Made by a program: the position numbers and the translations under genes. Shown here in pieces: positions 1 to 54,586 of a DNA stretch of 54,655 bases. The stretch is taken from the sequence record MH706966; one strand, given 5' to 3'. Source of the DNA: Enterobacteria phage mEp021. Numbering within the stretch: position 1 is the first letter of the stretch; the number at the start of each line of letters is the position of its first letter. Below the pieces are notes generated by a model that was not told where the DNA came from, ran no database searches, and worked only from the letters and a program-made list of their open reading frames with translations.

Positions 1-149
1 TCCAGACAGTAACGATTCGTAGTGTTTAGTTGCGTTCAGACTGGTTAATGGATGATAGAAAATATCATTTAAATTCACTAAGTTACACATCAATCTTCCG
101 CAGATGTGTTTTAATCCGTTCGATGATGTTAATATCCGTTCAGATAAAA

Positions 150-172
150 TTGTGTACCAAATCGTGACCAAA
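150..172. repeat. Candidate attL core: ttgtgtaccaaat-cgt-gaccaaa, matching 54564-54586 at 20 of 23 positions
   Basis: 13-bp exact match plus 7-bp exact match after a 3-nt gap, sited just upstream of the integrase start and just past the last tail-fibre gene. Confidence 0.3.
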
Positions 173-185
173 AAGAGGTGTCATA

Positions 186-1400
186 ATGCTGACGGATACG
201 AAATTACGCGCAATAGCAAACAAGCCATATGACGGCCCGAACGAGATAGCAGATCGCGACGGCTTGTCTGCAAGGGTAAGCCCGAAAGGGAAAATAACTT
301 TCCAGTTCAGGTACAGGTTCAACGGTAAGCCTGTAAGGATGAAGATCGGCGATTACGGCAGCATGACGTTAAAAGATGCACGCTACGCGGTTGCAGAATA
401 CAAAGAGCTATTAGCGAAGGGGAAGAACCCAACTGTTTCAGTAAAGCAAGCGATAAGTTTTGAGCGTGGCAAATTAACGATAAGCGCCATTGTGAGCGAC
501 TATTTATCTCTGCCAAACGTTATTAAGCTGGTTGCATATAATGACGTCAGGAGCGCGCTTAAGCGTCATGTTGTCGATAAATTCGGTGAGTATATTGCCG
601 ATGATGTCAGCACGAAACAATGGATGGATATGTTTGGTGAGATCACTGCGGCGGGCCACGCGGTTACGGCTGGCCTAATACTTAAGCGAATGAAGATTGT
701 TGTGAACAGTGCTATCCGGCGCGGGCTAATGACCAGTACGGCGATAAACAACATCAGGGTTATTGACGTTGGCGAAAATTATGCGGTTGGCGAACGTTAT
801 TTATCATGCGATGAAATAGGCCATTTCTGGCGAACGGTGGATGATTCGCAGATCTACCGTCAGAACAAGATAGCATTAAAGCTATTGTTGCTCACCGGGT
901 GCAGGGTGGGAGAATTGCAGAAAATGCGGAGGGAACACCTCGACCTGGATAACGGTGTGTGGACCGTTCCGGCAGCGGTGGCGAAGACAAGGAGTGAAAT
1001 CAGGCGTGGATTATCTGATCTGTCAATAGAAATGCTCAGGGAGGTATTAGCCTCCCATGAGTATGATTATGTGTTCCCGCCAGTGATTAACGGCGGTAAC
1101 AGGCCAGTAAACGCATCAGTGATAAAAGTAGCTGCAATCTTCGTGCGTAAAAGAATGGGCGGTAAGTCGTGGTCCTGTCACGACCTCCGCCGGACGTGCA
1201 GGACGCACCTGTCAGCCATAGGTGTTCCGGTACATATCGCGGAAAAGATTTTAGGCCACTCACTAAGGGGAATTCTGGCGGTGTACGACAAATATGATTA
1301 TCTTGATGAACAAAAGGATGCGCTAAATAAGTTTGCGGATTATGTATTATCTTTGGCTGACGTCAAACCAATCTCATCAAAGAACCGCATTACATCCTGA
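186..1400 (+). CDS. int: Tyrosine recombinase/integrase, P4-like family
   Basis: 404 aa; N-terminal LTDTKLRA...GLSARVSPKGKITFQFRYRFNGK arm-binding pattern; C-terminal HDLRRT...H and VYDKYDY catalytic region; SD aagagg before the ATG. Confidence 0.9.
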   Translation: MLTDTKLRAIANKPYDGPNEIADRDGLSARVSPKGKITFQFRYRFNGKPVRMKIGDYGSMTLKDARYAVAEYKELLAKGKNPTVSVKQAISFERGKLTISAIVSDYLSLPNVIKLVAYNDVRSALKRHVVDKFGEYIADDVSTKQWMDMFGEITAAGHAVTAGLILKRMKIVVNSAIRRGLMTSTAINNIRVIDVGENYAVGERYLSCDEIGHFWRTVDDSQIYRQNKIALKLLLLTGCRVGELQKMRREHLDLDNGVWTVPAAVAKTRSEIRRGLSDLSIEMLREVLASHEYDYVFPPVINGGNRPVNASVIKVAAIFVRKRMGGKSWSCHDLRRTCRTHLSAIGVPVHIAEKILGHSLRGILAVYDKYDYLDEQKDALNKFADYVLSLADVKPISSKNRITS

Positions 1401-1570
1401 TAGCGATACATGACGCCACGCCCGGTCCCCAACACATCAACCGGGTCCGGGAATGGAGTTCCGTTTTCCTCCCACTTTTTACGCCATGAATAAAACGTTC
1501 CCCTGCTAATTCCGCCCAGCATACGGCAGATGGCAGGGCGACTAAGAAGAATTGTTGCCGTCTTATCCAT
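1340..1570 (-). CDS. AlpA-like excisionase / small DNA-binding regulator
   Basis: 76 aa; LSRPAICRMLGGISRGTFYSWRKK HTH pattern typical of AlpA/Xis partners of P4-like integrases; 3' end overlaps the int 3' end convergently. Confidence 0.6.
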   Translation of the reverse strand: MDKTATILLSRPAICRMLGGISRGTFYSWRKKWEENGTPFPDPVDVLGTGRGVMYRYQDVMRFFDEIGLTSAKDNT

Positions 1571-1573
1571 TAT

Positions 1574-2227
1574 TTACCCCCCCGTGTATTCAACGTGTGC
1601 GATACAGCCATCAATAATTGCTTGTGCCATGTTGCGATAATCGCACGAAAAATCATTGTCATGGTTAAAGTCAATCTCTTTTGCCGCGTCTTCACCAATC
1701 ACCTTAGTAGCCAGCGCAAACGCAATTTGTGACAGTGCTTTTTCTTTTGGATCTATCCATCTGCGATATTTAAACCCATTCCATCTGGCTGTTTCTTCGT
1801 GTTTACCATCCTTTCTAACAAAGATCCCTAACTCATCGCCAGTAAAAATATATTTAGCTACGCAGTACATAGGGGCAAATTCCCCTGGGTAAAATTCTAG
1901 CCATACATTTAACGGCGGTCTTTCTCCTGGCTGCCATTCCTCGACTTTCTGCTTATCGCAATCATGGCGCTCATCTTCGATTAATTCATCAATGATTTCA
2001 CTTTCTTTATTCATGCCGTCATCATCCTTATTCGATAAATCATCGTATTTTTCAAATTTCCAGCCTGAAGCCATAGCCGAATAAGTGCTGCCATTGTCAG
2101 CACGGATACCTAATAAATAGTATGTTCCGAAATTATATTCTGTGCGGCATGTTGCCACCTCAAACGATGGGTAACACTCAGGGTTAGCGCGATGACTAAT
2201 CACGCCAATTGCTTTAAGTTTATTCAT
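1574..2227 (-). CDS. Hypothetical protein (217 aa)
   Basis: Long ORF with SD gaggat upstream; no recognisable motif. Confidence 0.5.
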   Translation of the reverse strand: MNKLKAIGVISHRANPECYPSFEVATCRTEYNFGTYYLLGIRADNGSTYSAMASGWKFEKYDDLSNKDDDGMNKESEIIDELIEDERHDCDKQKVEEWQPGERPPLNVWLEFYPGEFAPMYCVAKYIFTGDELGIFVRKDGKHEETARWNGFKYRRWIDPKEKALSQIAFALATKVIGEDAAKEIDFNHDNDFSCDYRNMAQAIIDGCIAHVEYTGG

Positions 2228-2241
2228 TTGCTTATCCTCAA

Positions 2242-2403
2242 TTACGCCACAGCTACATTGTCAACTTTGATAAAATATTCAGGGTGATTTTCTATTTCGT
2301 GCTGAAAGTGAGCGTGACATAATCGCCAATCACGCGCCTGGTTGTGAAAGTAATAAACGTATTCGCCATCAACCTTATACAAAATGCCTGTAGGTTTAGC
2401 CAT
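2242..2403 (-). CDS. Hypothetical small protein (53 aa)
   Basis: Fills the gap between NinB and the 217-aa ORF; below the 60-aa cut-off of the ORF track; weak SD. Confidence 0.3.
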   Translation of the reverse strand: MAKPTGILYKVDGEYVYYFHNQARDWRLCHAHFQHEIENHPEYFIKVDNVAVA

Positions 2404-2417
2404 GTAATAACTAACCA

Positions 2418-2849
2418 TTATTGCCCCCAGCGTTTTATAAATTCCTCGTTCAACTTAGTGTCACCAGACCATTGAACATTATGTTCAGCGCCGAACGAGT
2501 AGATCAGTTCGATTAGTTCGCTAAATTCTGCTTTACTCATCCGGCTGGTTGACGTACCCAGCACAACAAAACCTGATTTATCCAGGTTAGGGACAACGCC
2601 ATATTTCTTAAGTCCGGCAGTAAATACCGCCTTCCAGTCTTCCGGCGACAGCTTTTTTCCGTACCAATTAACCTGATCGCTAATGTCGGTTAACAGCGCC
2701 CATAAAAGGCTATTTTGACTAAGCGAGCGGGTTTTCTCCTGGATGGTAATTATCAGCGGGCTTTTGCTATCAGACTGGATCTCTCTTATCTGCCTGATAG
2801 CGTTTTCTTTTACGGCGTCGTTTACTATTTCAAATCTAATTTGCCTCAT
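2418..2849 (-). CDS. ninB: NinB-like recombination protein
   Basis: 143 aa; resemblance to the lambda NinB (Orf) family as recalled; sits in a nin-like context next to a methyltransferase. Confidence 0.65.
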   Translation of the reverse strand: MRQIRFEIVNDAVKENAIRQIREIQSDSKSPLIITIQEKTRSLSQNSLLWALLTDISDQVNWYGKKLSPEDWKAVFTAGLKKYGVVPNLDKSGFVVLGTSTSRMSKAEFSELIELIYSFGAEHNVQWSGDTKLNEEFIKRWGQ

Positions 2850-3573
2850 GGTTAGATAACGCCTCGTTTATTCTATTTGATGCAATTTCGAAATATTTTT
2901 CATCCTTTTCTATGCCGATAAAACGTCGGTTAGTATTAATGCAGGCAACGCCTGTAGTTCCGCTGCCCATAGTAAAATCGAGAACCGTTTCCCCTTCGTT
3001 AGTGTATGTCTTAATTAGGTATTCCATCAGTGCGACAGGCTTTTGTGTTGGGTGTACCTTGCCTTTCTGGTTTGCGTTACTTATCTCTATAATGCTTTTA
3101 GGGTGCTTATCCTTATAAGTCCTTAAATCACCATAATTAATTATGCGGTTTGCCTCCCCAGCAGAATATGTTTTACCCGTCCTTTCCTTTTGCGGAGTTT
3201 TTATTGGGTAATATTTGACAGCGCCTTTAGAAAAAACAACAACATCCTCATGCACCCTATAAGGTTGCCATTTGAGGACTTGCATGTTACCGCCTTTCTT
3301 CTTGTCCCATACCCAGCAATATTTAAACATGCTTATGTTGCTTGCAATTAGTGTTGTAGTGAACGGCTGACTTGCAGTCATCACAATGGCGCAATTCGGC
3401 TTAACTATGCGCTTTAATTGCTCCCACATTGGATTAAGAGGAATGACGGAATCCCATTTGCAGGCCGTTGTGCCGTAAGGCGGATCAGCCATTACCATAT
3501 CAACGCTACCGCCTGGGATAGAGTTCATGACCTCCAGACAATCACCCAACAATAATGTAACATCTTTATTCAT
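2836..3573 (-). CDS. DNA methyltransferase, N6-adenine or N4-cytosine type
   Basis: 245 aa; DPPY catalytic motif (MADPPYGT) near the N-terminus and AdoMet motif FTMGSGTTGVA near the C-terminus (motif IV before motif I). Confidence 0.75.
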   Translation of the reverse strand: MNKDVTLLLGDCLEVMNSIPGGSVDMVMADPPYGTTACKWDSVIPLNPMWEQLKRIVKPNCAIVMTASQPFTTTLIASNISMFKYCWVWDKKKGGNMQVLKWQPYRVHEDVVVFSKGAVKYYPIKTPQKERTGKTYSAGEANRIINYGDLRTYKDKHPKSIIEISNANQKGKVHPTQKPVALMEYLIKTYTNEGETVLDFTMGSGTTGVACINTNRRFIGIEKDEKYFEIASNRINEALSNHEAN

Positions 3574-3582
3574 TATGTTGCC

Positions 3583-3780
3583 TCATGATACACCGTTACT
3601 ATTTTTCCACTGTGACCGCGCATACATGATCGCCCACAGAGAAATAAGCCTTGAGCTAGACATATAATCGTTTTTGAGTTTTTTCATATCAATAATAACA
3701 GGACTATCAGGATCGTCACCTCGCATGTATTCCGCAATCGTGCTCAAGTCTTCCACGGTCAAATCTAATTCCCTATTCAT
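3583..3780 (-). CDS. Hypothetical protein (65 aa)
   Basis: ORF in a tightly packed leftward operon. Confidence 0.35.
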   Translation of the reverse strand: MNRELDLTVEDLSTIAEYMRGDDPDSPVIIDMKKLKNDYMSSSRLISLWAIMYARSQWKNSNGVS

Positions 3781-3789
3781 GGTCGCCCC

Positions 3790-3996
3790 TTACACAATCC
3801 GCATTGTGTTTCGTAATTCACCGCGCAACGCCTGCAAAGCGTAATGAATCGGCACAAAAGCACGGTTAAATTTTACGTGCTTATACTTGCGCATTAGTGG
3901 CGGCGTATAAACCATCGTGCCGCAAGGATCGCATGTGAATTTAAAGTGAGATTCGTCAATAAACGTTTCAACTGAATAAAAAATTACCCGTCTCAT
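3790..3996 (-). CDS. Hypothetical protein (68 aa)
   Basis: ORF in a tightly packed leftward operon; overlaps the upstream gene by 4 nt. Confidence 0.35.
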   Translation of the reverse strand: MRRVIFYSVETFIDESHFKFTCDPCGTMVYTPPLMRKYKHVKFNRAFVPIHYALQALRGELRNTMRIV

Positions 3997-4586
3997 AATT
4001 CCAACCCCGTTTCCACGTTGAGTTTTTCAATCTCAAATACTGGTTTATCAGGAAGCAGCCCGTTATTTTTACGGTATTCGTTCAGGCGGCTGTCAAAGTC
4101 AAACGCCAAATCATTAGCGTGACCGAATCGCCCAGGTTTAAACAGTGAGTAAAAGTTAACCCCGTGCCTATTTGGATCAACGCAAAGCGTTTCATCAATC
4201 ACCATTAGGCGAAGAGTACGAGAAAGATAATTCCACGGGATACCAGTCTCCGCACTAATGTCACGCATACGCTTTTTAACGCTGTAGTCACCAAATAACG
4301 ACGCAACACGCTCACGACGTTCAGCATATAACTGTTTAATACGATAGCCCAGCAGACGGCGGCGGCGTCCAAAACATGTATATACGCGCTCGACGATACC
4401 GTTTTTTATTAAGTGTTTAATTGTCTCAGGAAGTAACCCATCTTTATCATATCCAGCTAATAACCCCGTTTTATTGCGCAACTGGTGCATTGTTGCGATG
4501 CCATCAAGTTCAAGGATATTGATAACTTTTGTTTCAAGTTCAGCGCTCATTGTTTTTAGCCTCGTTTTAAACGCGATAACAGCCAC
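3993..4586 (-). CDS. Hypothetical protein (197 aa) downstream of the helicase
   Basis: Long ORF; no Walker motif seen, so not called as a helicase loader. Confidence 0.5.
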   Translation of the reverse strand: MAVIAFKTRLKTMSAELETKVINILELDGIATMHQLRNKTGLLAGYDKDGLLPETIKHLIKNGIVERVYTCFGRRRRLLGYRIKQLYAERRERVASLFGDYSVKKRMRDISAETGIPWNYLSRTLRLMVIDETLCVDPNRHGVNFYSLFKPGRFGHANDLAFDFDSRLNEYRKNNGLLPDKPVFEIEKLNVETGLEL

Positions 4587-4629
4587 CAGAAAGCGGTAAA
4601 CTTTCCGGTAAGCCGTTTGCTCATATTGA

Positions 4630-6045
4630 TTAAAAAGATGCGTTATTCTGGTTGTTTCGTTGGTTAAATCTGCCTGTGCGGTGATTCATAGACTGAATAC
4701 ACGCAGCAGCCGCGCGTGCCTGGTCGCATGGTAAAATGTTGCCGTTATCATCAAACCGCTGGTAAACAGTGCCAGATTTACCATGACGGTTTTTCGATAC
4801 AATGATTTCCATATATTCGCGGGCTACAGACTGCTCATCGTAATATCCATCGCGGTAAACCATGATGATCCTGTCAGCATCTTGTTCAAGGTTCCCGGAA
4901 TCGCGCAGATCTGAATTGTTAGGACGCTTGTTCGGTCGCTCCTCAACGCGGCGTGACAACTGCGCCAGCGCTAACACTGGAACGCGCAATTCTTTTGCCA
5001 TCATCTTCAACGACCATGACAATTGCCCAACAGCGAGATCATGACGTTCAGCCTTAGCCAGCTTCATCAACCCGATGTAGTCAATCATTACCATACCCAG
5101 GTTAGGATGTTCCTGTTTCATCCGTTCCGTGGTGGCGCGTATTTCCTCAACCGTTAACTGCGACGCGTCAACGATCCACACATCAAGATTAGCAAGTGCG
5201 CTCATACCCTTGCCGACATGCGCCCACCCCTCATCATCAAGTTTTACCGGATTACGCAGGCAGTCTGTTGATAAATTACCAGCGCCAGCTATAGCGCGTT
5301 CAGTCATCTGATCGAGTGACATTTCAAGCGTGAAGAACAAAACGCCAACCCGCTGATCTTTACTGCCAGGGTAAGGGCGCTCAGCGGCAGCGCGGGCAAT
5401 TGTCAGCGCCAACGCAGATTTACCAGACCCAGGGCGTCCAGCTAAAAGCACCAAATCAGTAGCGTTAATGCCTCCCAACATCTCATCGAGTGGATCTATC
5501 CCTGTTTTGATGTTGTCAGAATTAACACCGCATTCCATGCGCTTGCTTAAAACGTCCGTATATTCCTGTACCGCATCACGCAACAGAACAGGAATGATCT
5601 TATCTTTCGTTACCTTTAATTTTGAATACCGGGAATCAAAATCTTTCATCGTCTCTTTGACGACCTCAAGCGTCCCCGTCTCCAGTTTGTAGCGCATATC
5701 GTCGATGAGTTCCAACATCTGCCGCCGCTGGTGCTCTTCACGTAGTAGCTGTGCGTATCCCTTCAGGTTGGCAGCAGACGGGCACGATCTCGCCGTTTGC
5801 ATTAGCGGTACAAAGTTTTCGTTGCCAATCTCATCGCCAACCAATAACGCGTCAATAAGATTCCTGTTTCTGGCTTGCGCCCTGATAATTTCAAACGCAC
5901 GTTTATACAGCGGAATCGTGAACACTTCAGGATCAAGAGTGGCGAGAACATCTTGCGCGTTAGGAGTAAGGCCGCCCAACAGCAGCCCACCGATAACTGA
6001 CGCCTCACGTTCCTGCCGTAGTGAGTTTATTTGCTCAGTTACCAT
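4630..6045 (-). CDS. dnaB: Replicative DNA helicase, DnaB family
   Basis: 471 aa; Walker A GRPGSGKSALALTIA; DnaB-like N-terminal domain and overall pattern. Confidence 0.85.
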   Translation of the reverse strand: MVTEQINSLRQEREASVIGGLLLGGLTPNAQDVLATLDPEVFTIPLYKRAFEIIRAQARNRNLIDALLVGDEIGNENFVPLMQTARSCPSAANLKGYAQLLREEHQRRQMLELIDDMRYKLETGTLEVVKETMKDFDSRYSKLKVTKDKIIPVLLRDAVQEYTDVLSKRMECGVNSDNIKTGIDPLDEMLGGINATDLVLLAGRPGSGKSALALTIARAAAERPYPGSKDQRVGVLFFTLEMSLDQMTERAIAGAGNLSTDCLRNPVKLDDEGWAHVGKGMSALANLDVWIVDASQLTVEEIRATTERMKQEHPNLGMVMIDYIGLMKLAKAERHDLAVGQLSWSLKMMAKELRVPVLALAQLSRRVEERPNKRPNNSDLRDSGNLEQDADRIIMVYRDGYYDEQSVAREYMEIIVSKNRHGKSGTVYQRFDDNGNILPCDQARAAAACIQSMNHRTGRFNQRNNQNNASF

Positions 6046-6079
6046 TATGTTATTACCTCCGGTTTACAAAATGGAAAAT

Positions 6080-6586
6080 TCAGGGTAAAGAAATACCGTG
6101 ATTGCTATGAAAGTTATACATTCTTTCAGCTTCTTTTCTTGCTTTTACGGCATCATCAAATGAGTCACCGTAATAAACGTACATTGTTTTCTTTTTCCCA
6201 TCAGACCCCCTTATACCTATTTGCGCCCGCCATTTATGGGTTTTCTTGTTCCACGTAACGCCAACGCATCCGCTAGTATTACTTGATGGCATTGTTTTGT
6301 TTCTGTTATTCTCCTTCCTTGTCACTATCCTTAAGTTTTCGATTCTATCGTCACCAGGTACATGATTTATGTGATCTATTTCCATTCCATCAGGAATAGG
6401 GCCGTTAAACATTTCCCAGATAATGCGGTGACGCCATGTGCAACAAATACCATTAACGCGTATAGTCCAATATCCGCGATAATGTTTACATCCAGCCACG
6501 CTACCTGCTTTTATTTTGTTATTTGCACGGTTACAAGACCAATATAGAACGCCGTCGCTATATGTAAATAAATCATCCCACATCAT
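6080..6586 (-). CDS. HNH homing endonuclease with AP2-like domain
   Basis: EIDHINHVPGDDRIENLRIVTRKENNRNK HNH motif; start taken at the internal ATGATG (6586) that overlaps the stop of the upstream gene; paralog of 45958-46524. Confidence 0.65.
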   Translation of the reverse strand: MMWDDLFTYSDGVLYWSCNRANNKIKAGSVAGCKHYRGYWTIRVNGICCTWRHRIIWEMFNGPIPDGMEIDHINHVPGDDRIENLRIVTRKENNRNKTMPSSNTSGCVGVTWNKKTHKWRAQIGIRGSDGKKKTMYVYYGDSFDDAVKARKEAERMYNFHSNHGISLP

Positions 6587-7703
6587 GACACCCAACCATT
6601 TCAGGCCTATATACAAAGCGACCAATTTCGCCATAATCAGGGCTGTAAATGATAACCGCCGCGCAACGTTGCGATCTCCAGCCTCCATTAGTTGAATAAG
6701 CGTCTTTTCCCGCTAACGTGCCGTGGTGTTCAACTATGCCTATAGATGATTCTGTTACTGATTTATGGTGCAAATGTCCGACATGGACGTAAACATATTT
6801 CGACTTGCCAAAATCCTCACGCCAGTCAGCTACGCAAGCAGACAATAAATTTTCAGGCTTTTTGATAGTGTGCCCGTGGTGGTAAGCAAGGAATGTTTTT
6901 CCGTACTGTGTGTGGTGGACGATGGCAGGGGACACATCAACCGTCACGCGCGGTTCATCTTCGTAAAAAGCCGCCAGCGCCGCACGTAGCCAGATCATTC
7001 CTGACTGGTCGTGATTGCCGGATAACACCTGGATTTCAACATCCTTATGATTTAATAACATCTTCCCTACCGCCCGCCGGACAGACCGGATCGCTACATA
7101 AACAAGTTTTGCGTAGCGACTATCTTGATCAAGAATGTGCCCGCTTGTTGGTGTCACCGGGACCATACCGTCAGAATGAAGTAGATCGCCACCGAGGAGC
7201 AGTACTGCTTTTTCAGACATAGGAGCAGCGCCAACCGCGTAGTCAAAGAAGTCATTCAACACGCGCTCAGCGATCCCAGTATCGTAGCTCTCACCGCATT
7301 CAGCTTTATGAGCAAGTGCCCCGATATGCAGGTCAAACACCGGATAAAGAGCCAGGCTTTTTTGAAAATCAATTTCCGGCACTGGCACTGCCTCCGCGCG
7401 TGGTATTTCTTCCGTGAATGCGTCGCGGGCGGCTTCCATTAGCCTTTCCATTTCATCGCGATCACGGGCTGTTTTAATCCAGCGCATGACCGTATTACCA
7501 GCCTTATCGACAAGAACAGATTCACCAGTAACGCCAAAACCCGGTGCGCGGCGCGTTGATAATAAACCGCGTTTCGCCAGCTTTGCGCCAAGCCGCTCGA
7601 CGTTGCGTTTTGACATGCCATATTTTTCGGCGATCTGTTTATACGTTAAACCGTTGTTATATTCAGCGATCAATTGCTCATCGCTTATCTTTCTTTGCGA
7701 CAT
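6573..7703 (-). CDS. HTH domain fused to calcineurin-like metallophosphoesterase (Mre11/SbcD or lambda-PPase-like)
   Basis: 376 aa; N-terminal LTYKQIAEKYGMSKRNVERL HTH; phosphoesterase motifs LLGGDLLHSDG, LSGNHDQ, HHGH, HVGHLHH. Confidence 0.6.
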   Translation of the reverse strand: MSQRKISDEQLIAEYNNGLTYKQIAEKYGMSKRNVERLGAKLAKRGLLSTRRAPGFGVTGESVLVDKAGNTVMRWIKTARDRDEMERLMEAARDAFTEEIPRAEAVPVPEIDFQKSLALYPVFDLHIGALAHKAECGESYDTGIAERVLNDFFDYAVGAAPMSEKAVLLLGGDLLHSDGMVPVTPTSGHILDQDSRYAKLVYVAIRSVRRAVGKMLLNHKDVEIQVLSGNHDQSGMIWLRAALAAFYEDEPRVTVDVSPAIVHHTQYGKTFLAYHHGHTIKKPENLLSACVADWREDFGKSKYVYVHVGHLHHKSVTESSIGIVEHHGTLAGKDAYSTNGGWRSQRCAAVIIYSPDYGEIGRFVYRPEMVGCHDVG

Positions 7704-7736
7704 AATGTTACTTCCTCATGTTTACGTTTTGTATAT

Positions 7737-9224
7737 TCATTGGCAGAAAACAATCTCTTTAAATGCTTTTTCTACCATGTCGAATACTTCCGGCCTGTAA
7801 TAGAAAAACTCATTGCTTCCATCAAATTTCACAGGAAAATTGATTTTATAATTACTAAAAGCCTTATGCATCGTGTTTTCTAGTTTATGTATACTTTCGG
7901 TTGGCCCTTCTAACGTTTTCACGACACACAAATCAGGGATTCTAACACCTGCTTTATGTGCGCTTTTTAATATCCGATTTCTTCGCTCGTTCTCCTTAAC
8001 ACTTACGCCGATTTTCATTTGTGTAGGTAATTCCAGATCATCAACCATGATGTAAAGTTTGCCATAATCATAACGAAAGAAACCGTATTTAGCGCATTTT
8101 TGGCAACCCCTACCGCGCTTAAGTTCTCTAGGTCTAACCGACCACTTATGATTACAAACCTTACAGCGGCATGATACTTTTTTATTTACGTTCGTTATTT
8201 CTCCCAGCACTTCAACATCAGGATTAACCTTAGCAATAGCTAAAACATGTTCTTCGTGCGTTATAATCTTCCCAGCACATTTTGGGCAACCCTTCCCGCG
8301 TTTAAGGTTGCTAGGAGTAACCGACCACTTATGATTACAAACCTTACAGCGGCATGATACTTTTTTATCTACGTTCGTTATTTCTCCCAGCACTTCAACA
8401 TCAGGATTAACCTTAGCAATAGCTAAAACATGTTCTTCGTGCGTTATAATCTTCCCAGCACATTTTGGGCAACCCTTACCGCGCTTAAGGTGGTTAGGTC
8501 TAACTGACCATTCATGATCACAAACCTTGCAGCGGCATAATACTTTTTTGTCGCCACCTGTAATTTCACCCAGCACTTCAACATCAGGATTAACCTTCGC
8601 AATGGCAGCAATTTGTTTATAATGTGATAGTCTTAGTTTTTGTGCAATTTTCACACATTTACATTTCGGGCAACCGCTCCCGTGTTTAAGGGCGTCAGGC
8701 GTAGCCGACCATACACGATCACAAATCTTGCAGCGGCATAATACTTTTGTTCTGCTATTAACAATTTTCCCCAGCACTTCAACATCAGGATTAATTCTTG
8801 AGATGGCGGCGATCTGTTCTTCGTGTGATAATCTTTTTGGCCCTTGCTTTAACATTGCGCATTTCGGGCAACCATTCCCGCGTTTAAGGTTGCTAGGAGT
8901 AACCGACCACTCATGATCACAAACCTTGCAGCGGCATAATACTTTTGTGCTGTTATTTATTATTTCCCCCAACACTTCAACATCAGGATTAATTTTAGCA
9001 ATAGCCGCAATTTGTTCTTCGTGGGATAGCCTTGCGTTCCCAGCGCATTTTGGGCAACCTTTACCGTGTTTAAGGTTGCTAGGAGTAACCGACCATTCAT
9101 GATCACAAACCTTGCAGCGGCATAATACTTTTTCCCGGCTTCCAGTAATTTCTCCCATCACTTCAACATCAGGATTAACTTTCGCAATAGCTGCAACCTG
9201 TTCTTCGTGTGTTAGCTTGCACAT
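7737..9224 (-). CDS. Protein with six tandem Zn-ribbon modules and a C-terminal GIY-YIG-like (T5orf172-type) domain
   Basis: 495 aa; six ~55-aa repeats HEEQVAAIAKVNPDVEVLGEI...C.C..C.H.W...P..L..G.GCPKC; C-terminal GKLYIMVDD...KIGVS...RRNRIL pattern; repeats 5 and 6 are near-identical at DNA level. Confidence 0.55.
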   Translation of the reverse strand: MCKLTHEEQVAAIAKVNPDVEVMGEITGSREKVLCRCKVCDHEWSVTPSNLKHGKGCPKCAGNARLSHEEQIAAIAKINPDVEVLGEIINNSTKVLCRCKVCDHEWSVTPSNLKRGNGCPKCAMLKQGPKRLSHEEQIAAISRINPDVEVLGKIVNSRTKVLCRCKICDRVWSATPDALKHGSGCPKCKCVKIAQKLRLSHYKQIAAIAKVNPDVEVLGEITGGDKKVLCRCKVCDHEWSVRPNHLKRGKGCPKCAGKIITHEEHVLAIAKVNPDVEVLGEITNVDKKVSCRCKVCNHKWSVTPSNLKRGKGCPKCAGKIITHEEHVLAIAKVNPDVEVLGEITNVNKKVSCRCKVCNHKWSVRPRELKRGRGCQKCAKYGFFRYDYGKLYIMVDDLELPTQMKIGVSVKENERRNRILKSAHKAGVRIPDLCVVKTLEGPTESIHKLENTMHKAFSNYKINFPVKFDGSNEFFYYRPEVFDMVEKAFKEIVFCQ

Positions 9225-9365
9225 CGTTTCAACTCCTTAAAACGCCTCAGACACTCTACAACGCAAAAACACACCGCGTAATCCACTTGTAATGGTGCAG
9301 TGTCTTTTTTGCGCCAGAATCGCAATCAGGTGGCTAATTTTTTGATTTACAGACTGGTATGAAGG

Positions 9366-9467
9366 TTATGGATTTACTAGAAGGAACAAGCCGCCGAACA
9401 AAGCGACGTTAACAGCGATTGCAGCGGCGATGGCAAAAGCCAGGGCGAAAACGTGTTTACCGTCCAT
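9366..9467 (-). CDS. Small hydrophobic peptide (33 aa, single predicted TM helix)
   Basis: MDGKHVFALAFAIAAAIAVNVALFGGLFLLVNP; SD agagagga upstream; below the ORF-track cut-off. Confidence 0.35.
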   Translation of the reverse strand: MDGKHVFALAFAIAAAIAVNVALFGGLFLLVNP

Positions 9468-9600
9468 TTTAAAATCCTCTCTAAAACGCTCTCTAACGAG
9501 CTAAACCGCTAAAGGTATGCAAGTGTAGCACCCAATGCTTTTTAGCTCGCTTATGGGCTTGTTTTGTTGGTAATTTTTGATTTTTGCGTATTGTGGTTGG

Positions 9601-10608
9601 TCAAATAGCGCCTGCGCGTGTATCGCGTAGCGTTTTTGGTTTAAGCAGGAAATCAAGTGTCGCAGTGAAGCCATTGCCGAAGTAAAAGTCTGAAGCCGTG
9701 TTTTTAAACGCCTCAAAGTAAGCAATAAAGCCAGTGATGCTTTTGTCTTTCAGGTAGTCAGTGAACGCATAGATCTTGCGTTCAAGATCCCGATCCAGTT
9801 CAGCAGGTGGCAACAGGCCATCAAACGTGCTGTTAAATGCTTCCACTACGTCGGCAGCGTTTGCAGTGACTGACAGTTTGCTCCATTGTTCAGCATCAGC
9901 CAGATACCCATCGAATTTAGTTACCCGGCAAATGTTAACAGGCTTAGGCACTCCACCACGGCCACGCCATTGCGTTAAAGCCCACTCAATCACTAATGTG
10001 ATCTCACCCTCCGTATACGCTTTGCGTGTTTTTGTTTCTGTCAGTAGTTCTACGAATGGCTTTGCATCACGACATTTGCATCCTGCCTTGTCGTTGTAGA
10101 AGGACAGGCAACGCAATGCCGCCAGATTAACCTCCCGATCTTCTTCGCTGATAGACTCGTCTTTTTCCAATACACGAAGTGTATTGTTTTTAATGTTCTC
10201 TTTACTGGTTATATATGACTGATTAGGGTTGCTCTCTGCCACTACCCCCGGTTGCTTTGTGCCACTACCCTGGTTGCTCTCTGCCACTACCCCCGGTTGC
10301 TTTGTGCCACTACCTGACAGTGAAGGTAAAACGATTACATAGAAATTGCTCGTTTGTTCTTTCCCTCCTATTAAATATCGAGGCTGTTTTAGTAATAAAC
10401 CTTTTTTGCAAAGAGCCTCGATTGCTCTCATTGCCGTACTTTTGTTTATTTCGCATTGCTTTGCTATGTGCTGGTAAGAAGGGTAGCACTCTCCGTTATC
10501 GTTAGCGTTATCAGCCAACTTTAACAGCACAAGTTTGTGCATTGGGTTGCCGACTTCAGTATGAAAGACTTCAACCATTAGCCGCATACTCATAAGCATT
10601 AACCTCAT
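9601..10608 (-). CDS. Replication initiator, phage O-like
   Basis: N-terminal winged-HTH pattern KLVLLKLADNANDNGECYPSYQHIAKQCEINKSTAMRAIEALCKKGLL; iterons embedded in the coding sequence; true start probably the internal ATG at 10593 with a gaggt SD. Confidence 0.7.
   Translation of the reverse strand: MRLMLMSMRLMVEVFHTEVGNPMHKLVLLKLADNANDNGECYPSYQHIAKQCEINKSTAMRAIEALCKKGLLLKQPRYLIGGKEQTSNFYVIVLPSLSGSGTKQPGVVAESNQGSGTKQPGVVAESNPNQSYITSKENIKNNTLRVLEKDESISEEDREVNLAALRCLSFYNDKAGCKCRDAKPFVELLTETKTRKAYTEGEITLVIEWALTQWRGRGGVPKPVNICRVTKFDGYLADAEQWSKLSVTANAADVVEAFNSTFDGLLPPAELDRDLERKIYAFTDYLKDKSITGFIAYFEAFKNTASDFYFGNGFTATLDFLLKPKTLRDTRAGAI
10227..10314. repeat. Four tandem ~22-bp iterons (ggttgctYtSTgccactaccc), candidate replication origin
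   Basis: Direct repeats at 10227-10249, 10250-10271, 10272-10294, 10295-10314, inside the O-like gene (encoding SGTKQPGVVAESN twice). Confidence 0.6.
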
Positions 10609-10614
10609 GACGAA

Positions 10615-10860
10615 CTAAAACATTAACTGATAAACACAGAAGAAGCCTGGAAGCTGGCTAATCAGGCCGCTTCTTTTCAGTTGATGCAGTGCAGAGATAG
10701 TGTCACGTAACGAAATTTCGCACATTTCCGCGATCTCTTCCGGAGTTACTTCGCTTTTGCCGTTGCATCCGGCCTTTGTTGCCAGTGCAATTAAGATAAG
10801 TTTTTGCACATGATCATTGTTATTCAGGCGAATATCAAAAGCCTTGCGAACGTAATACAT
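10615..10860 (-). CDS. Small winged-helix DNA-binding protein, first gene of the leftward operon (Cro-like by position)
   Basis: 81 aa; KLILIALATKAGCNGKSEVTPEEIAEMCEISLRDTISALHQLKRSGLI resembles the N-terminal domain of the O-like protein; divergent from cI; SD aggaga. Confidence 0.45.
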   Translation of the reverse strand: MYYVRKAFDIRLNNNDHVQKLILIALATKAGCNGKSEVTPEEIAEMCEISLRDTISALHQLKRSGLISQLPGFFCVYQLMF

Positions 10861-11166
10861 GTTTCTTTCTCCTATGGTTAGAGTGAACGCGCGGGCGGGT
10901 ATCCAATTAGCATTAGATAGCAGTGACTGACCGCTGAACAGATCCCGCCGTTGCGTGATATTTGTTTTTCGCTTCGCAGCGACACCGGATTTTTAAAGAG
11001 CTTTTAAGGTATGTACCTTTTGTGCTTTCCCTTATCTTTTTTCTTGCATCATTGCAACTATGGCCTTACCTTGTCAGCAAGTTTACAGAATGGAGCTTTA
11101 AGATCAAGGCTTGAAAAATACGTTTTGTGACTTGCATCAAAATTTTTTAGGTTATAGGGTAGCGAT
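10861..11166. promoter_or_regulatory. Divergent promoter/operator region between the Cro-like gene and cI
   Basis: 306-bp non-coding spacer with a 14-bp palindrome aaggtatgtacctt (11007-11020), an inverted repeat ttgcatcattgcaa (11044-11057) and a second cttgcatca (11129-11137). Individual operators not assigned. Confidence 0.5.
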
Positions 11167-11814
11167 ATGAAAACAAAATGGTATGACTTAGCAAAACAAC
11201 TCATGCGGGCGCAGGGCATGAGCCAGGATTCATTGGCTGATCTTATGGGGATCACAAAAGGCGGCCTTTCTCACTGGCTGAACGGTAGACGTGAGCCAAA
11301 TCTTGAAGATATTGCGCGTATCATGCGGGCGCTTGGGCGTCGGCAGTTCACTGTCACACATGATGGAATGGTCATTGATGATTCTGTTTCTAACACGTTG
11401 CCGGGAGCGCCGCCGCGTGATTTAGGTAGTTACCCGGTTGTTGACTGGAAGGATGTAGTAAACAATATGGAAGATGCAAGGCGATCAACATTACCACACG
11501 TTACGACTAGCGTTATTTGTTCAGATGATAGTTATTGGCTGGTAGCTAAAGGCGAATCAATGAACGCGCCGCAAGGATTGAGTATACCAGCGGGGACGAT
11601 GATACTTGTCGATCCGCACGCGCCAGCTATTGACGGCAAACTGGTTATAGCCCAATTGGAGGAGGGGCAGGTACCGACGTTTAAACAGTTGATTATTGAT
11701 GGAGGTCAAAGACTTTTGCGTTCGCTCAATCCGCTGTATCCGCCAATCCCTATGAATCCAGAATCAAAAATTATAGGCGTGGTGGTTGATGCGAAGATCG
11801 TAAACCTGCCATAA
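11167..11814 (+). CDS. cI: CI-type repressor (HTH plus S24 LexA-like peptidase domain)
   Basis: 215 aa; N-terminal HTH QDSLADLMGITKGGLSHWLNGRREP; C-terminal AKGESM...DGKLVIAQL S24 autocleavage pattern. Confidence 0.85.
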   Translation: MKTKWYDLAKQLMRAQGMSQDSLADLMGITKGGLSHWLNGRREPNLEDIARIMRALGRRQFTVTHDGMVIDDSVSNTLPGAPPRDLGSYPVVDWKDVVNNMEDARRSTLPHVTTSVICSDDSYWLVAKGESMNAPQGLSIPAGTMILVDPHAPAIDGKLVIAQLEEGQVPTFKQLIIDGGQRLLRSLNPLYPPIPMNPESKIIGVVVDAKIVNLP

Positions 11815-11818
11815 ACAT

Positions 11819-11845
11819 TAGCCGCCGGATGGCGGCTTTTCTTTG
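11819..11845 (+). terminator. Rho-independent terminator after cI
   Basis: Hairpin gccgcc-ggat-ggcggc followed by ttttctttg. Confidence 0.7.
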
Positions 11846-12223
11846 CCGTAAAAACACCAAAACGTAAACAGAAAACATGTTTTATCATTTAAATATCAAT
11901 GAGATAGAAAATTTTTTAAAAAAGTATACAAAATGGATTGACTCTGTATATCACGGGGCGTATATTGCGAATCAAAGGAAGGAGGCAGGAAACAAAAAAG
12001 CACCTTCCAGGCACTTTAAAAAATCAGGCTTAACACCTTGTCAACCGTGGAGTAACTCCCCGATGGGGGACCGAAAGCGGCACTGATAACAAGGCGCATG
12101 GGGTGTTTAAAGCGTTACACCCCCCACGAAACCGCACGCAAGGCGACGAGTCAGCTTGCTTGGAGTGAGCAAGGTCACACCGGAAACGGCGATGATTGCG
12201 GGATTAGTTGAAAGATGTTAAGC

Positions 12224-54378: not shown

Positions 54379-54384
54379 GGAAAA

Positions 54385-54411
54385 GGGGCCATACGGCCCC
54401 TTCTTTAGTTT
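54385..54411 (+). terminator. Rho-independent terminator after the tail fibre gene
   Basis: Hairpin ggggcc-atac-ggcccc followed by ttctttagttt. Confidence 0.7.
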
Positions 54412-54536: not shown

Positions 54537-54566
54537 GAAACGAGGCTAACGCCTCGTTTCTTTTTG
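54537..54566 (+). terminator. Terminator-like hairpin immediately before the candidate attR core
   Basis: aaacgaggc-taac-gcctcgttt followed by ctttttgtg. Confidence 0.5.
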
Positions 54567-54586
54567 TGTACCAAATAGAGACCAAA
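54564..54586. repeat. Candidate attR core: ttgtgtaccaaat-aga-gaccaaa
   Basis: 20 of 23 match to 150-172. Confidence 0.3.

Follow-up and report, generated by a model that had tools for sequence, protein, structure and literature searches.

In lambda, about 20 nt at the 5' end of int are also part of xis, and prokaryotic genes that meet tail to tail mostly share only a few bases, long overlaps of this kind often being annotation errors. Among the described systems closest to the locus considered here, the SXT/R391 integrative conjugative elements carry a xis gene and an int gene that converge (PMC4344509), and in KplE1 (CPS-53), HK620 and Sf6, and in P4, int has a dedicated promoter that overlaps the attachment (att) site and is repressed by the integrase and also by the recombination directionality factor (RDF; TorI or Vis) (PMC2951348). 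The mEpimmI group of phages, which includes mEp515 and mEp554, is described as Nus-dependent and non-lambdoid; its type I integrases direct integration at dgcM (ydaM), all of its members have a conserved nutL site and an N-like antiterminator, Gp17, and the description names no excisionase (PMC11893012). Here we consider the integration module of Enterobacteria phage mEp021 (sequence record MH706966), the 54,655 nt of which were analyzed as a whole and are referred to as the window. The initial 2.4 kb of the window match Escherichia phage mEp515 at 99.9% identity and mEp554 at 91%, and by sequence the window is a coliphage of the mEpimmI group. The module consists of an integrase gene (int, 186 to 1400, + strand, 404 aa) and, facing it, a small gene for a predicted winged-helix protein of 76 aa (1340 to 1570, − strand), which is called xis here after its most likely role as a putative RDF (excisionase) and/or regulator and with which the leftward early operon ends. 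The two coding sequences overlap by 61 nt (1340 to 1400). Comparison of relatives indicates that the overlap is real and ancestral, and we think it probable that it is a run-on of dispensable tails in a compact, spacer-less int-RDF module, inherited from the ancestor of these mEpimmI-type temperate phages.

The overlap was derived from a mechanical list of open reading frames (ORFs), and the list and a direct reading of the sequence both agree with the coordinates, convergent orientation and 61-nt length given in the initial annotation. The shared segment measures 61 nt with both stop codons and 55 nt codon-on-codon, and it places Int residues 386 to 404 opposite residues 57 to 76 of the Xis-like protein. 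Int codons begin at 186+3k and xis codons end at 1394-3k, a phase that superimposes the third codon positions of int on those of xis. The int stop, TGA at 1398-1400 (cTGAta), is the antisense of the Xis codons TAT-CAG (Y57-Q58) and is followed immediately by a second in-frame stop, TAG at 1401-1403; the xis stop, TAA at 1342-1340 on the − strand, is the antisense of gaT-TAt (D385-Y386) in int. The codons that generate the stops are conserved in the partner, Xis Y57-Q58 being invariant and Int D385-Y386 conserved.

If the small ORF were no gene, or ended earlier than listed, the overlap would be an artefact of ORF calling, and existing annotation could be read in this way. GenBank has no coding sequence for the small gene in mEp515 (PP180003.1), a wrong-frame 42-aa ORF is annotated in its place at 1390..1518 in mEp554 (PP180005.1), the Prokaryotic Genome Annotation Pipeline (PGAP) left it out of E. 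coli LSU61 (NZ_CP038336.1, L007 2653-2886), the annotation of Salmonella phage Oslo (NC_018279.1, L062 1771-2022) is without it, and in one genome PGAP uses a shorter start that gives 60 aa. These omissions and miscalls apparently arise because gene callers penalize overlap; in most E. coli prophages PGAP does call the two genes despite their overlap, and an alternative start codon leaves the 3' overlap unchanged. Against an artefact, a profile search of 1.84 billion representatives returned 27 hidden Markov model (HMM) relatives (a word-indexed homologue search gave 15 close relatives only, and the full HMM search was needed for distant ones), the near-full-length homologues keep the frame at 72 to 82 aa with 18 invariant residues in a 12-sequence alignment, and the family shares the motif set MLGGISR...GTPFP...YRYxxV..F...G. 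The gene is under purifying selection, diversity at codon positions 1+2 being 0.12 to 0.15 times that at position 3; its ATG is preceded on its own strand by a Shine-Dalgarno-like run, GGGGGGGTAAATAATG, and by the stop of the upstream gene (seven G, then TAA-ATA-ATG), to which it is thereby coupled; and its AlphaFold2 model, with a mean predicted local distance difference test (pLDDT) score of 82, has an excisionase-type fold. The initial annotation had proposed looking in related phages for an earlier stop in the small ORF, and wherever the integrase is convergent none of the small ORFs ends before the integrase stop. The artefact explanation is effectively refuted, and we give it hardly any weight.

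By every test applied, the int product is a tyrosine recombinase and a P4-type phage integrase. It matches PF13356 (Arm-DNA-bind_3) with 76 bits against a cut-off of 27, PF00589 (Phage_integrase) with 76.6 bits against 27.1, and the integrase family phrog_1 at 2e-70, and its catalytic residues R240, K267, H332, R335, H358 and Y367 are invariant in an alignment of 10 integrases that extends down to 27% identity. In its AlphaFold2 model (pLDDT 85.6) the last helix spans residues 373 to 391, and residues 394 to 404 fall below a pLDDT of 50.

The model of the small protein runs strand-helix-helix-strand-strand-helix, with helix 3 at residues 57 to 67 and an average pLDDT of 46 over residues 71 to 76. 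A Foldseek search of the PDB with this model placed the GIsul2 excisionase (8c3t, probability 0.94) at the top, followed by the gpNu1 DNA-binding domain, BldC, RacA, TorI and RdfS, all at E>0.1; the matches are all of the excisionase/MerR-type winged-helix fold, but none is statistically significant. Profile searches with the sequence gave a generic Pfam HTH_23 match of 29.5 bits, a match to phrog_4745 at 4.8e-11, and weak matches to the excisionase family phrog_66 (E 0.0066) and to Xis_Gifsy_1 (17 bits, cut-off 60). A sequence search of the protein against solved structures returned spurious matches only (E>0.1), and no significant sequence match was found to the Phage_AlpA, HTH_17, Xis or TorI models. 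The initial annotation had called the gene AlpA-like, a description that holds at the level of fold only and fails at the level of family: Phage_AlpA (PF05930) gives no match to the window protein even at E<=5, it reaches 12 bits (cut-off 21) against the type II homologue, with HTH_17 at 14.8 bits (cut-off 27), and membership of the AlpA family was rejected for want of a profile match.

The linkage of the small gene to int is as expected of an excisionase. It adjoins int in every mEpimmI type, and does so in distant relatives as well, and the segment from position 1 to about 1950 of the window is swapped between integrase types as one unit, with int and the small gene moving together; between types I and II the Xis proteins are 46% and the integrases 51% identical. 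That the two genes, both called recombination genes in the initial annotation, form one recombination module is supported. One caveat on the linkage to int is that elements at the eut site hold an 80-84% identical copy of the gene, yet their integrase, IntZ, is only 28% identical to that of the window. Taken together, the small gene is most likely an excisionase, or RDF, and may act as a regulator too.

The relatives examined comprise phages and prophages with integrases of types I, II and III, Proteus phage Pm34, Salmonella phage Oslo, MagusPhagus and metagenomic homologues, and the overlap is kept in every one that has a convergent integrase. It measures 61 nt in type Ib, in type III and in the type I subtype whose Int ends ...KPIRSKNCITS. 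In type Ia it is 37 nt, a single change (CGA/TCA to TGA) having made Int codon 397 a stop and Xis residue 66 a Gln, such that Int ends 8 codons early. In type II, which uses the abgT/ogt site, it is 43 nt, as it also is in MagusPhagus; it is 55 nt in Oslo and 25 nt in Pm34, and the distant homologues from metagenomes and other genomes show overlaps of 34, 37, 25, 73 and 40 nt. All eight lengths (25, 34, 37, 40, 43, 55, 61 and 73 nt) are 1 mod 3, which is to say that there is a single phase. Phase conservation was considered as evidence of selection on the overlap and was rejected as weak, since a frameshift spares both structured parts only within about 5 nt (1362-1367) and retention of the phase is therefore expected by descent. 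Two exceptions to the facing layout were found, one being a short contig with no facing integrase in view and the other an 11-kb CPZ-55-like element at the E. coli eutA-eutB locus (L003/L004/L060), in which the next gene after the 80-84% identical 76-aa copy runs in the same direction and IntZ lies at the other end. Because this copy retains 76 aa, that length is native to the protein and independent of a facing integrase. DNA homology of the eut element to the window begins at 1379 or 1368, within the overlap, which marks a mosaic joint in the gene's tail.

How two proteins are accommodated in one segment is suggested by the models. The low-confidence Int tail (residues 394 to 404, 1365-1397) lies opposite helix 3 of Xis (57 to 67, 1370-1402), and the low-confidence Xis tail (69 to 76, 1343-1366) lies opposite the end of the last Int helix (386 to 393, 1341-1364); the 61 nt are genuinely dual-coding, yet at each position of the overlap only one frame is predicted to encode structured, conserved protein. 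Past the W/F-A-D/N-Y motif, Int has a tail of anywhere from 2 to 21 aa, depending on the lineage. Some of its residues are conserved nevertheless: integrases of type I, type III and the lineage L055, which are 40-47% identical overall, end in ...KN-ITS, those of type II end in ...QNE(I/M)TS, and P395 is nearly invariant in the integrase alignment. Lambda Int has a regulatory C-terminal tail, and the conserved endings could mean that the tail is itself functional here, as a regulatory tail or an RDF contact, with selection in both frames. However, the conserved residues K394-P395, N400 and T403-S404 lie opposite the invariant Xis residues G68, F63 and D59-V60/Q58, so that constraint on Xis alone would explain the conservation in Int; moreover, type Ia, L058, L051 and Pm34 (L054) have no tail, the tail is modeled at a pLDDT below 50, and non-synonymous diversity is raised in the overlap. 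A function of the Int tail is accordingly, in our view, improbable. The dual codon at 1374-1376 (Int 397, Xis 66) is hypervariable, encoding E, K, Q or R in Xis against S, L, stop or R in Int, and its Q/stop state defines the type Ia integrases that are 8 aa shorter (Ecol_244 and L025).

Diversity was analyzed in ten distinct type I sequences, and dividing its value at codon positions 1+2 by that at position 3 gives 0.38 in the overlap versus 0.12 to 0.18 in the adjoining single-coding zones. Third-position diversity in the overlap, at 0.169, lies within the range of the flanks (0.146 to 0.296), and diversity at positions 1+2 is greater there than in the flanks, such that non-synonymous change is faster in the overlap. 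Folding of the junction gave no RNA structure beyond that of shuffled sequences (z of -0.67 and +0.71) and an Rfam scan of positions 1-12000 gave no family. Diversity, folding and Rfam thus all came out against a constraint of sequence or structure in the overlap beyond coding, and within the region constraint is lowest in the overlap, contrary to what a sequence-dependent element would lead one to expect. Nor does the length of 61 nt need special explanation once the genes abut, because in this phase the antisense frame is open for at least 61 nt from the 3' end in 36% of the window's 74 genes; what exceeds chance is the conservation of the arrangement in all relatives, not the length of the overlap. 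The xis genes of the window and mEp554 differ little at synonymous positions, which was considered as a sign of extra constraint; the effect vanished with the ten type I sequences and is probably a product of recombinational mosaicism.

With regard to transcription, no terminator was detected for either gene. The consensus terminator sites at 1448-1463 on the + strand and at 239..221 on the − strand are weak and fold as shuffled sequence does (z of 0.10 and -0.40), the first of them losing its T-run or stem in close relatives, and both were rejected. It follows that each transcript would be antisense to at least the 3' end of the partner gene, and this part of the initial annotation, that transcription of one gene is antisense to the end of the other, finds support in the sequence. 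Int and early-left transcripts probably overlap, with leftward ones, and especially antiterminated ones, running antisense into int, and with int transcripts probably running antisense into xis. A possible antisense promoter in the overlap itself, TTGACG-16-CATAAT at 1366..1339 on the − strand, has 10/12 matches to the consensus and was treated as chance: promoter-like sites are not commoner than in shuffled sequence, both hexamers degrade in mEp554, and its -10 element consists of the xis stop and the int D-Y codons.

Such overlapping transcripts could have been put to use. The overlap might be a selected cis-antisense or transcriptional-interference device that sets the Int:Xis ratio and hence the direction of recombination. 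On loss of the repressor, early-left transcription, antiterminated by Gp17 at nutL, would pass through xis and run antisense across int, where it would collide with polymerases from a weak int promoter or form RNase III-sensitive duplexes, whereas in the lysogen int would be unopposed. The two units have no spacer and no detectable terminator between them, though the phage has strong terminators elsewhere; nutL and N-like antitermination are reported throughout the group, with a boxA-like element at 11001-10993 (−) in the window; in relatives xis is always last in a long co-directional operon that faces int; and the convergent layout is kept down to 40% Int identity. The authors who described the convergent xis and int genes of SXT/R391 took them to hint at a further layer of regulation (PMC4344509). 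Other observations are hard to square with such a device. The length of the overlap is not conserved (25-73 nt), there is neither structure nor excess conservation at the shared synonymous positions, and an 80-84% identical Xis gene exists in the eut-site elements without a facing integrase. Excision, moreover, requires both Int and Xis, so that silencing int on induction seems counter-productive, and no RNA mechanism would be needed if int were regulated, as in KplE1, by direct action of the RDF or Int on the leader repeat. The proposal in the initial annotation that the antisense relationship gives reciprocal control of integration versus excision therefore lacks sequence-level support, considering that the length varies, that type Ia has been truncated by a nonsense change to 37 nt, that constraint in the region is lowest in the overlap and that RNA structure is absent. 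We regard a selected antisense device as possible but unlikely, and the stricter form of the idea, that the phase-locked, spacer-less junction evolved as a directionality device in which N-antiterminated early-left transcription delivers Xis while running antisense across all of int and its att-embedded promoter, as a little less likely again. If true, the supply of Int and that of Xis would be mechanically anti-correlated, a transcription-collision counterpart of lambda sib retroregulation, and the collision device would be conserved in a family of enterobacterial phages of Escherichia, Salmonella and Proteus.

The explanation that we prefer, a run-on of dispensable tails, starts from the layout. 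The int gene is read inward from attP, behind a leader with a repeat shared with the other att arm, and the small winged-helix gene ends the long leftward early operon and faces int without an intergenic spacer. Since there is no spacer, each frame continues into the antisense of its partner until it meets a stop, and since third positions coincide, stops are confined to sites opposite Tyr or Gln/His codons of the partner; Xis Y57-Q58 terminate int and Int D385-Y386 terminate xis. Because only one frame is structured at each position, the length of the overlap would drift (25-73 nt) as point mutations shift the stops. Some transcriptional interference or RNA duplex formation would be a by-product of the overlapping transcripts. 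Several points weigh against the run-on explanation. That the antisense relationship is a by-product is something we infer; the arrangement is without exception across integrases down to 40% identity, which could reflect selection for convergence itself; the indels at the junction are all multiples of three (a 15-nt deletion in type II and a 21-nt insertion in L055), which we attribute to the very narrow zone in which a frameshift spares both structured parts; and the KN-ITS ending of Int turns up again in distant lineages (L055), such that the tail might have a function of its own.

The window falls into three parts, namely int (186-1400, +), a leftward block of genes from about 10.6 kb to 1340, and a long rightward block from 11.2 to 54.4 kb. 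The window begins at the attachment-site core, TCCAGACAG (1..9, +), the phage/host crossover in dgcM (ydaM): in alignment with the window start, the left prophage junctions of E. coli WCHEC025970 and Ecol_244 consist of host dgcM up to TCCAGACAG and of phage homology thereafter. A 21-bp direct repeat, GTGTACCAAATnGnGACCAAA, has exactly two copies in the window, one per att arm, where none is expected in shuffled sequence. The first copy, GTGTACCAAATcGtGACCAAA (152..172, +), lies 14 nt upstream of the int ATG, overlaps the int leader and promoter, and is, by analogy with KplE1 intS (PMC2951348), a candidate arm-type binding site for Int (or the RDF); the second, GTGTACCAAATaGaGACCAAA (54566..54586, +), lies in the other attP arm. 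In the int leader ATCCGTTC is repeated 20 bp apart, with starts at 114 and 134 (114-124 and 134-144), and both this element and the 21-bp repeat are likely to be binding sites for Int and/or the RDF. Through the leader repeat, int may have an att-embedded, autoregulated promoter of the KplE1/P4 pattern. The late operon is closed off from attP and int by tandem terminators: a strong intrinsic terminator ends the late operon upstream of attP (54384..54403, +, -19.4 kcal/mol, z = -3.79), and a second strong one precedes the right-arm repeat (54537..54565, +, -17.2 kcal/mol, z = -4.42). At the head of the leftward operon, inspection alone suggests a candidate nutL (10969..11001, −) made up of the boxA-like GCTCTTTAA (11001-10993) and a hairpin.

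Directly upstream of xis lies a 217-aa gene of unknown function and without a family match (1574..2227, −), the TAA stop of which is separated by a 3-nt gap from the xis ATG. DNA homology of the type II phages mEp010 and mEp044 to the window begins at 1950-1955, and the 3' two-thirds of the 217-aa gene (about 1574-1950) are part of the exchangeable int module. A homopolymer at the extreme end of this gene, a G-run on the coding strand, reads C7 on the + strand of the window (1577-1583) and C9 in mEp515 (1577-1585), a difference that alters the last codons and moves the stop (1574 as against 1570). An error of sequencing may be the cause, or else the tract may be prone to slippage and also serve as the Shine-Dalgarno sequence of xis. 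Farther along the leftward operon is a variable cargo slot, occupied by a 245-aa ORF with a DPPY methyltransferase-like motif (2836-3573, −) in the window and in mEp515, and by a short gene of 65 aa in mEp554 and in several prophages. In addition, many IMG/VR prophage contigs taken from isolate genomes start exactly at the stop of the small gene and so have lost the integrase and attL, which looks like an artefact of prophage-boundary tools that cut by gene coordinates where two genes overlap.

For annotation, the small gene offers a candidate RDF for a widespread group of gut coliphages, together with a rule by which to find it, as a convergent ORF that overlaps int by 1 mod 3. Were the convergent transcription to prove regulatory, it would be an alternative to the ways in which lambda and KplE1 set the Int:Xis balance.

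Compared with described systems, the module is most like SXT/R391 in its layout, since in both an RDF gene and a tyrosine integrase gene are adjacent and convergent, form no operon and have uncoupled expression. SXT/R391 differ in being integrative conjugative elements under SetCD, in place of a phage early operon with N-like antitermination, and their RDFs have no detectable sequence family in common with the small protein. The module resembles KplE1 and P4 in that int points inward from att, has candidate binding sites in its leader (152-172) and is transcribed independently of the RDF, and the integrase shares with the P4-type enzymes an Arm-DNA-bind_3 domain joined to the catalytic domain. 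Autoregulation of int is a feature of KplE1 and, by analogy, a candidate feature of the window, and in KplE1 the gene for the RDF sits at the opposite end of the prophage and runs in the same direction across attP, an arrangement that resembles the eut-site element and not the window. As in lambda, the RDF would come from an N-antiterminated leftward early operon, and the fate of int expression depends on sequence 3' of the operon. In lambda, however, xis and int are co-directional, int is expressed from PL and PI, and RNase III exerts control at sib, whereas in the window phage the leftward transcript cannot yield Int at all. The small protein has the same predicted topology as the GIsul2 excisionase (8c3t), TorI (1z4h), RdfS (8dgl), AlpA/HTH_17, BldC and the gpNu1 N-domain, and it is like excisionase/MerR-type winged helices in its size of about 75 aa and its position beside an integrase, although unlike them it has a motif set of its own. 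In common with convergent overlaps generally, the two genes have 3' ends on opposite strands and stops within the codons of the partner; the overlap differs from these in its length of 25-73 nt, in having been verified in both frames and in being conserved across a family, and int and the small gene are a genuine convergent overlapping gene pair. The mEpimmI module thus joins a P4-type integrase to an uncurated family of excisionase fold in a layout that is both convergent and physically overlapping.

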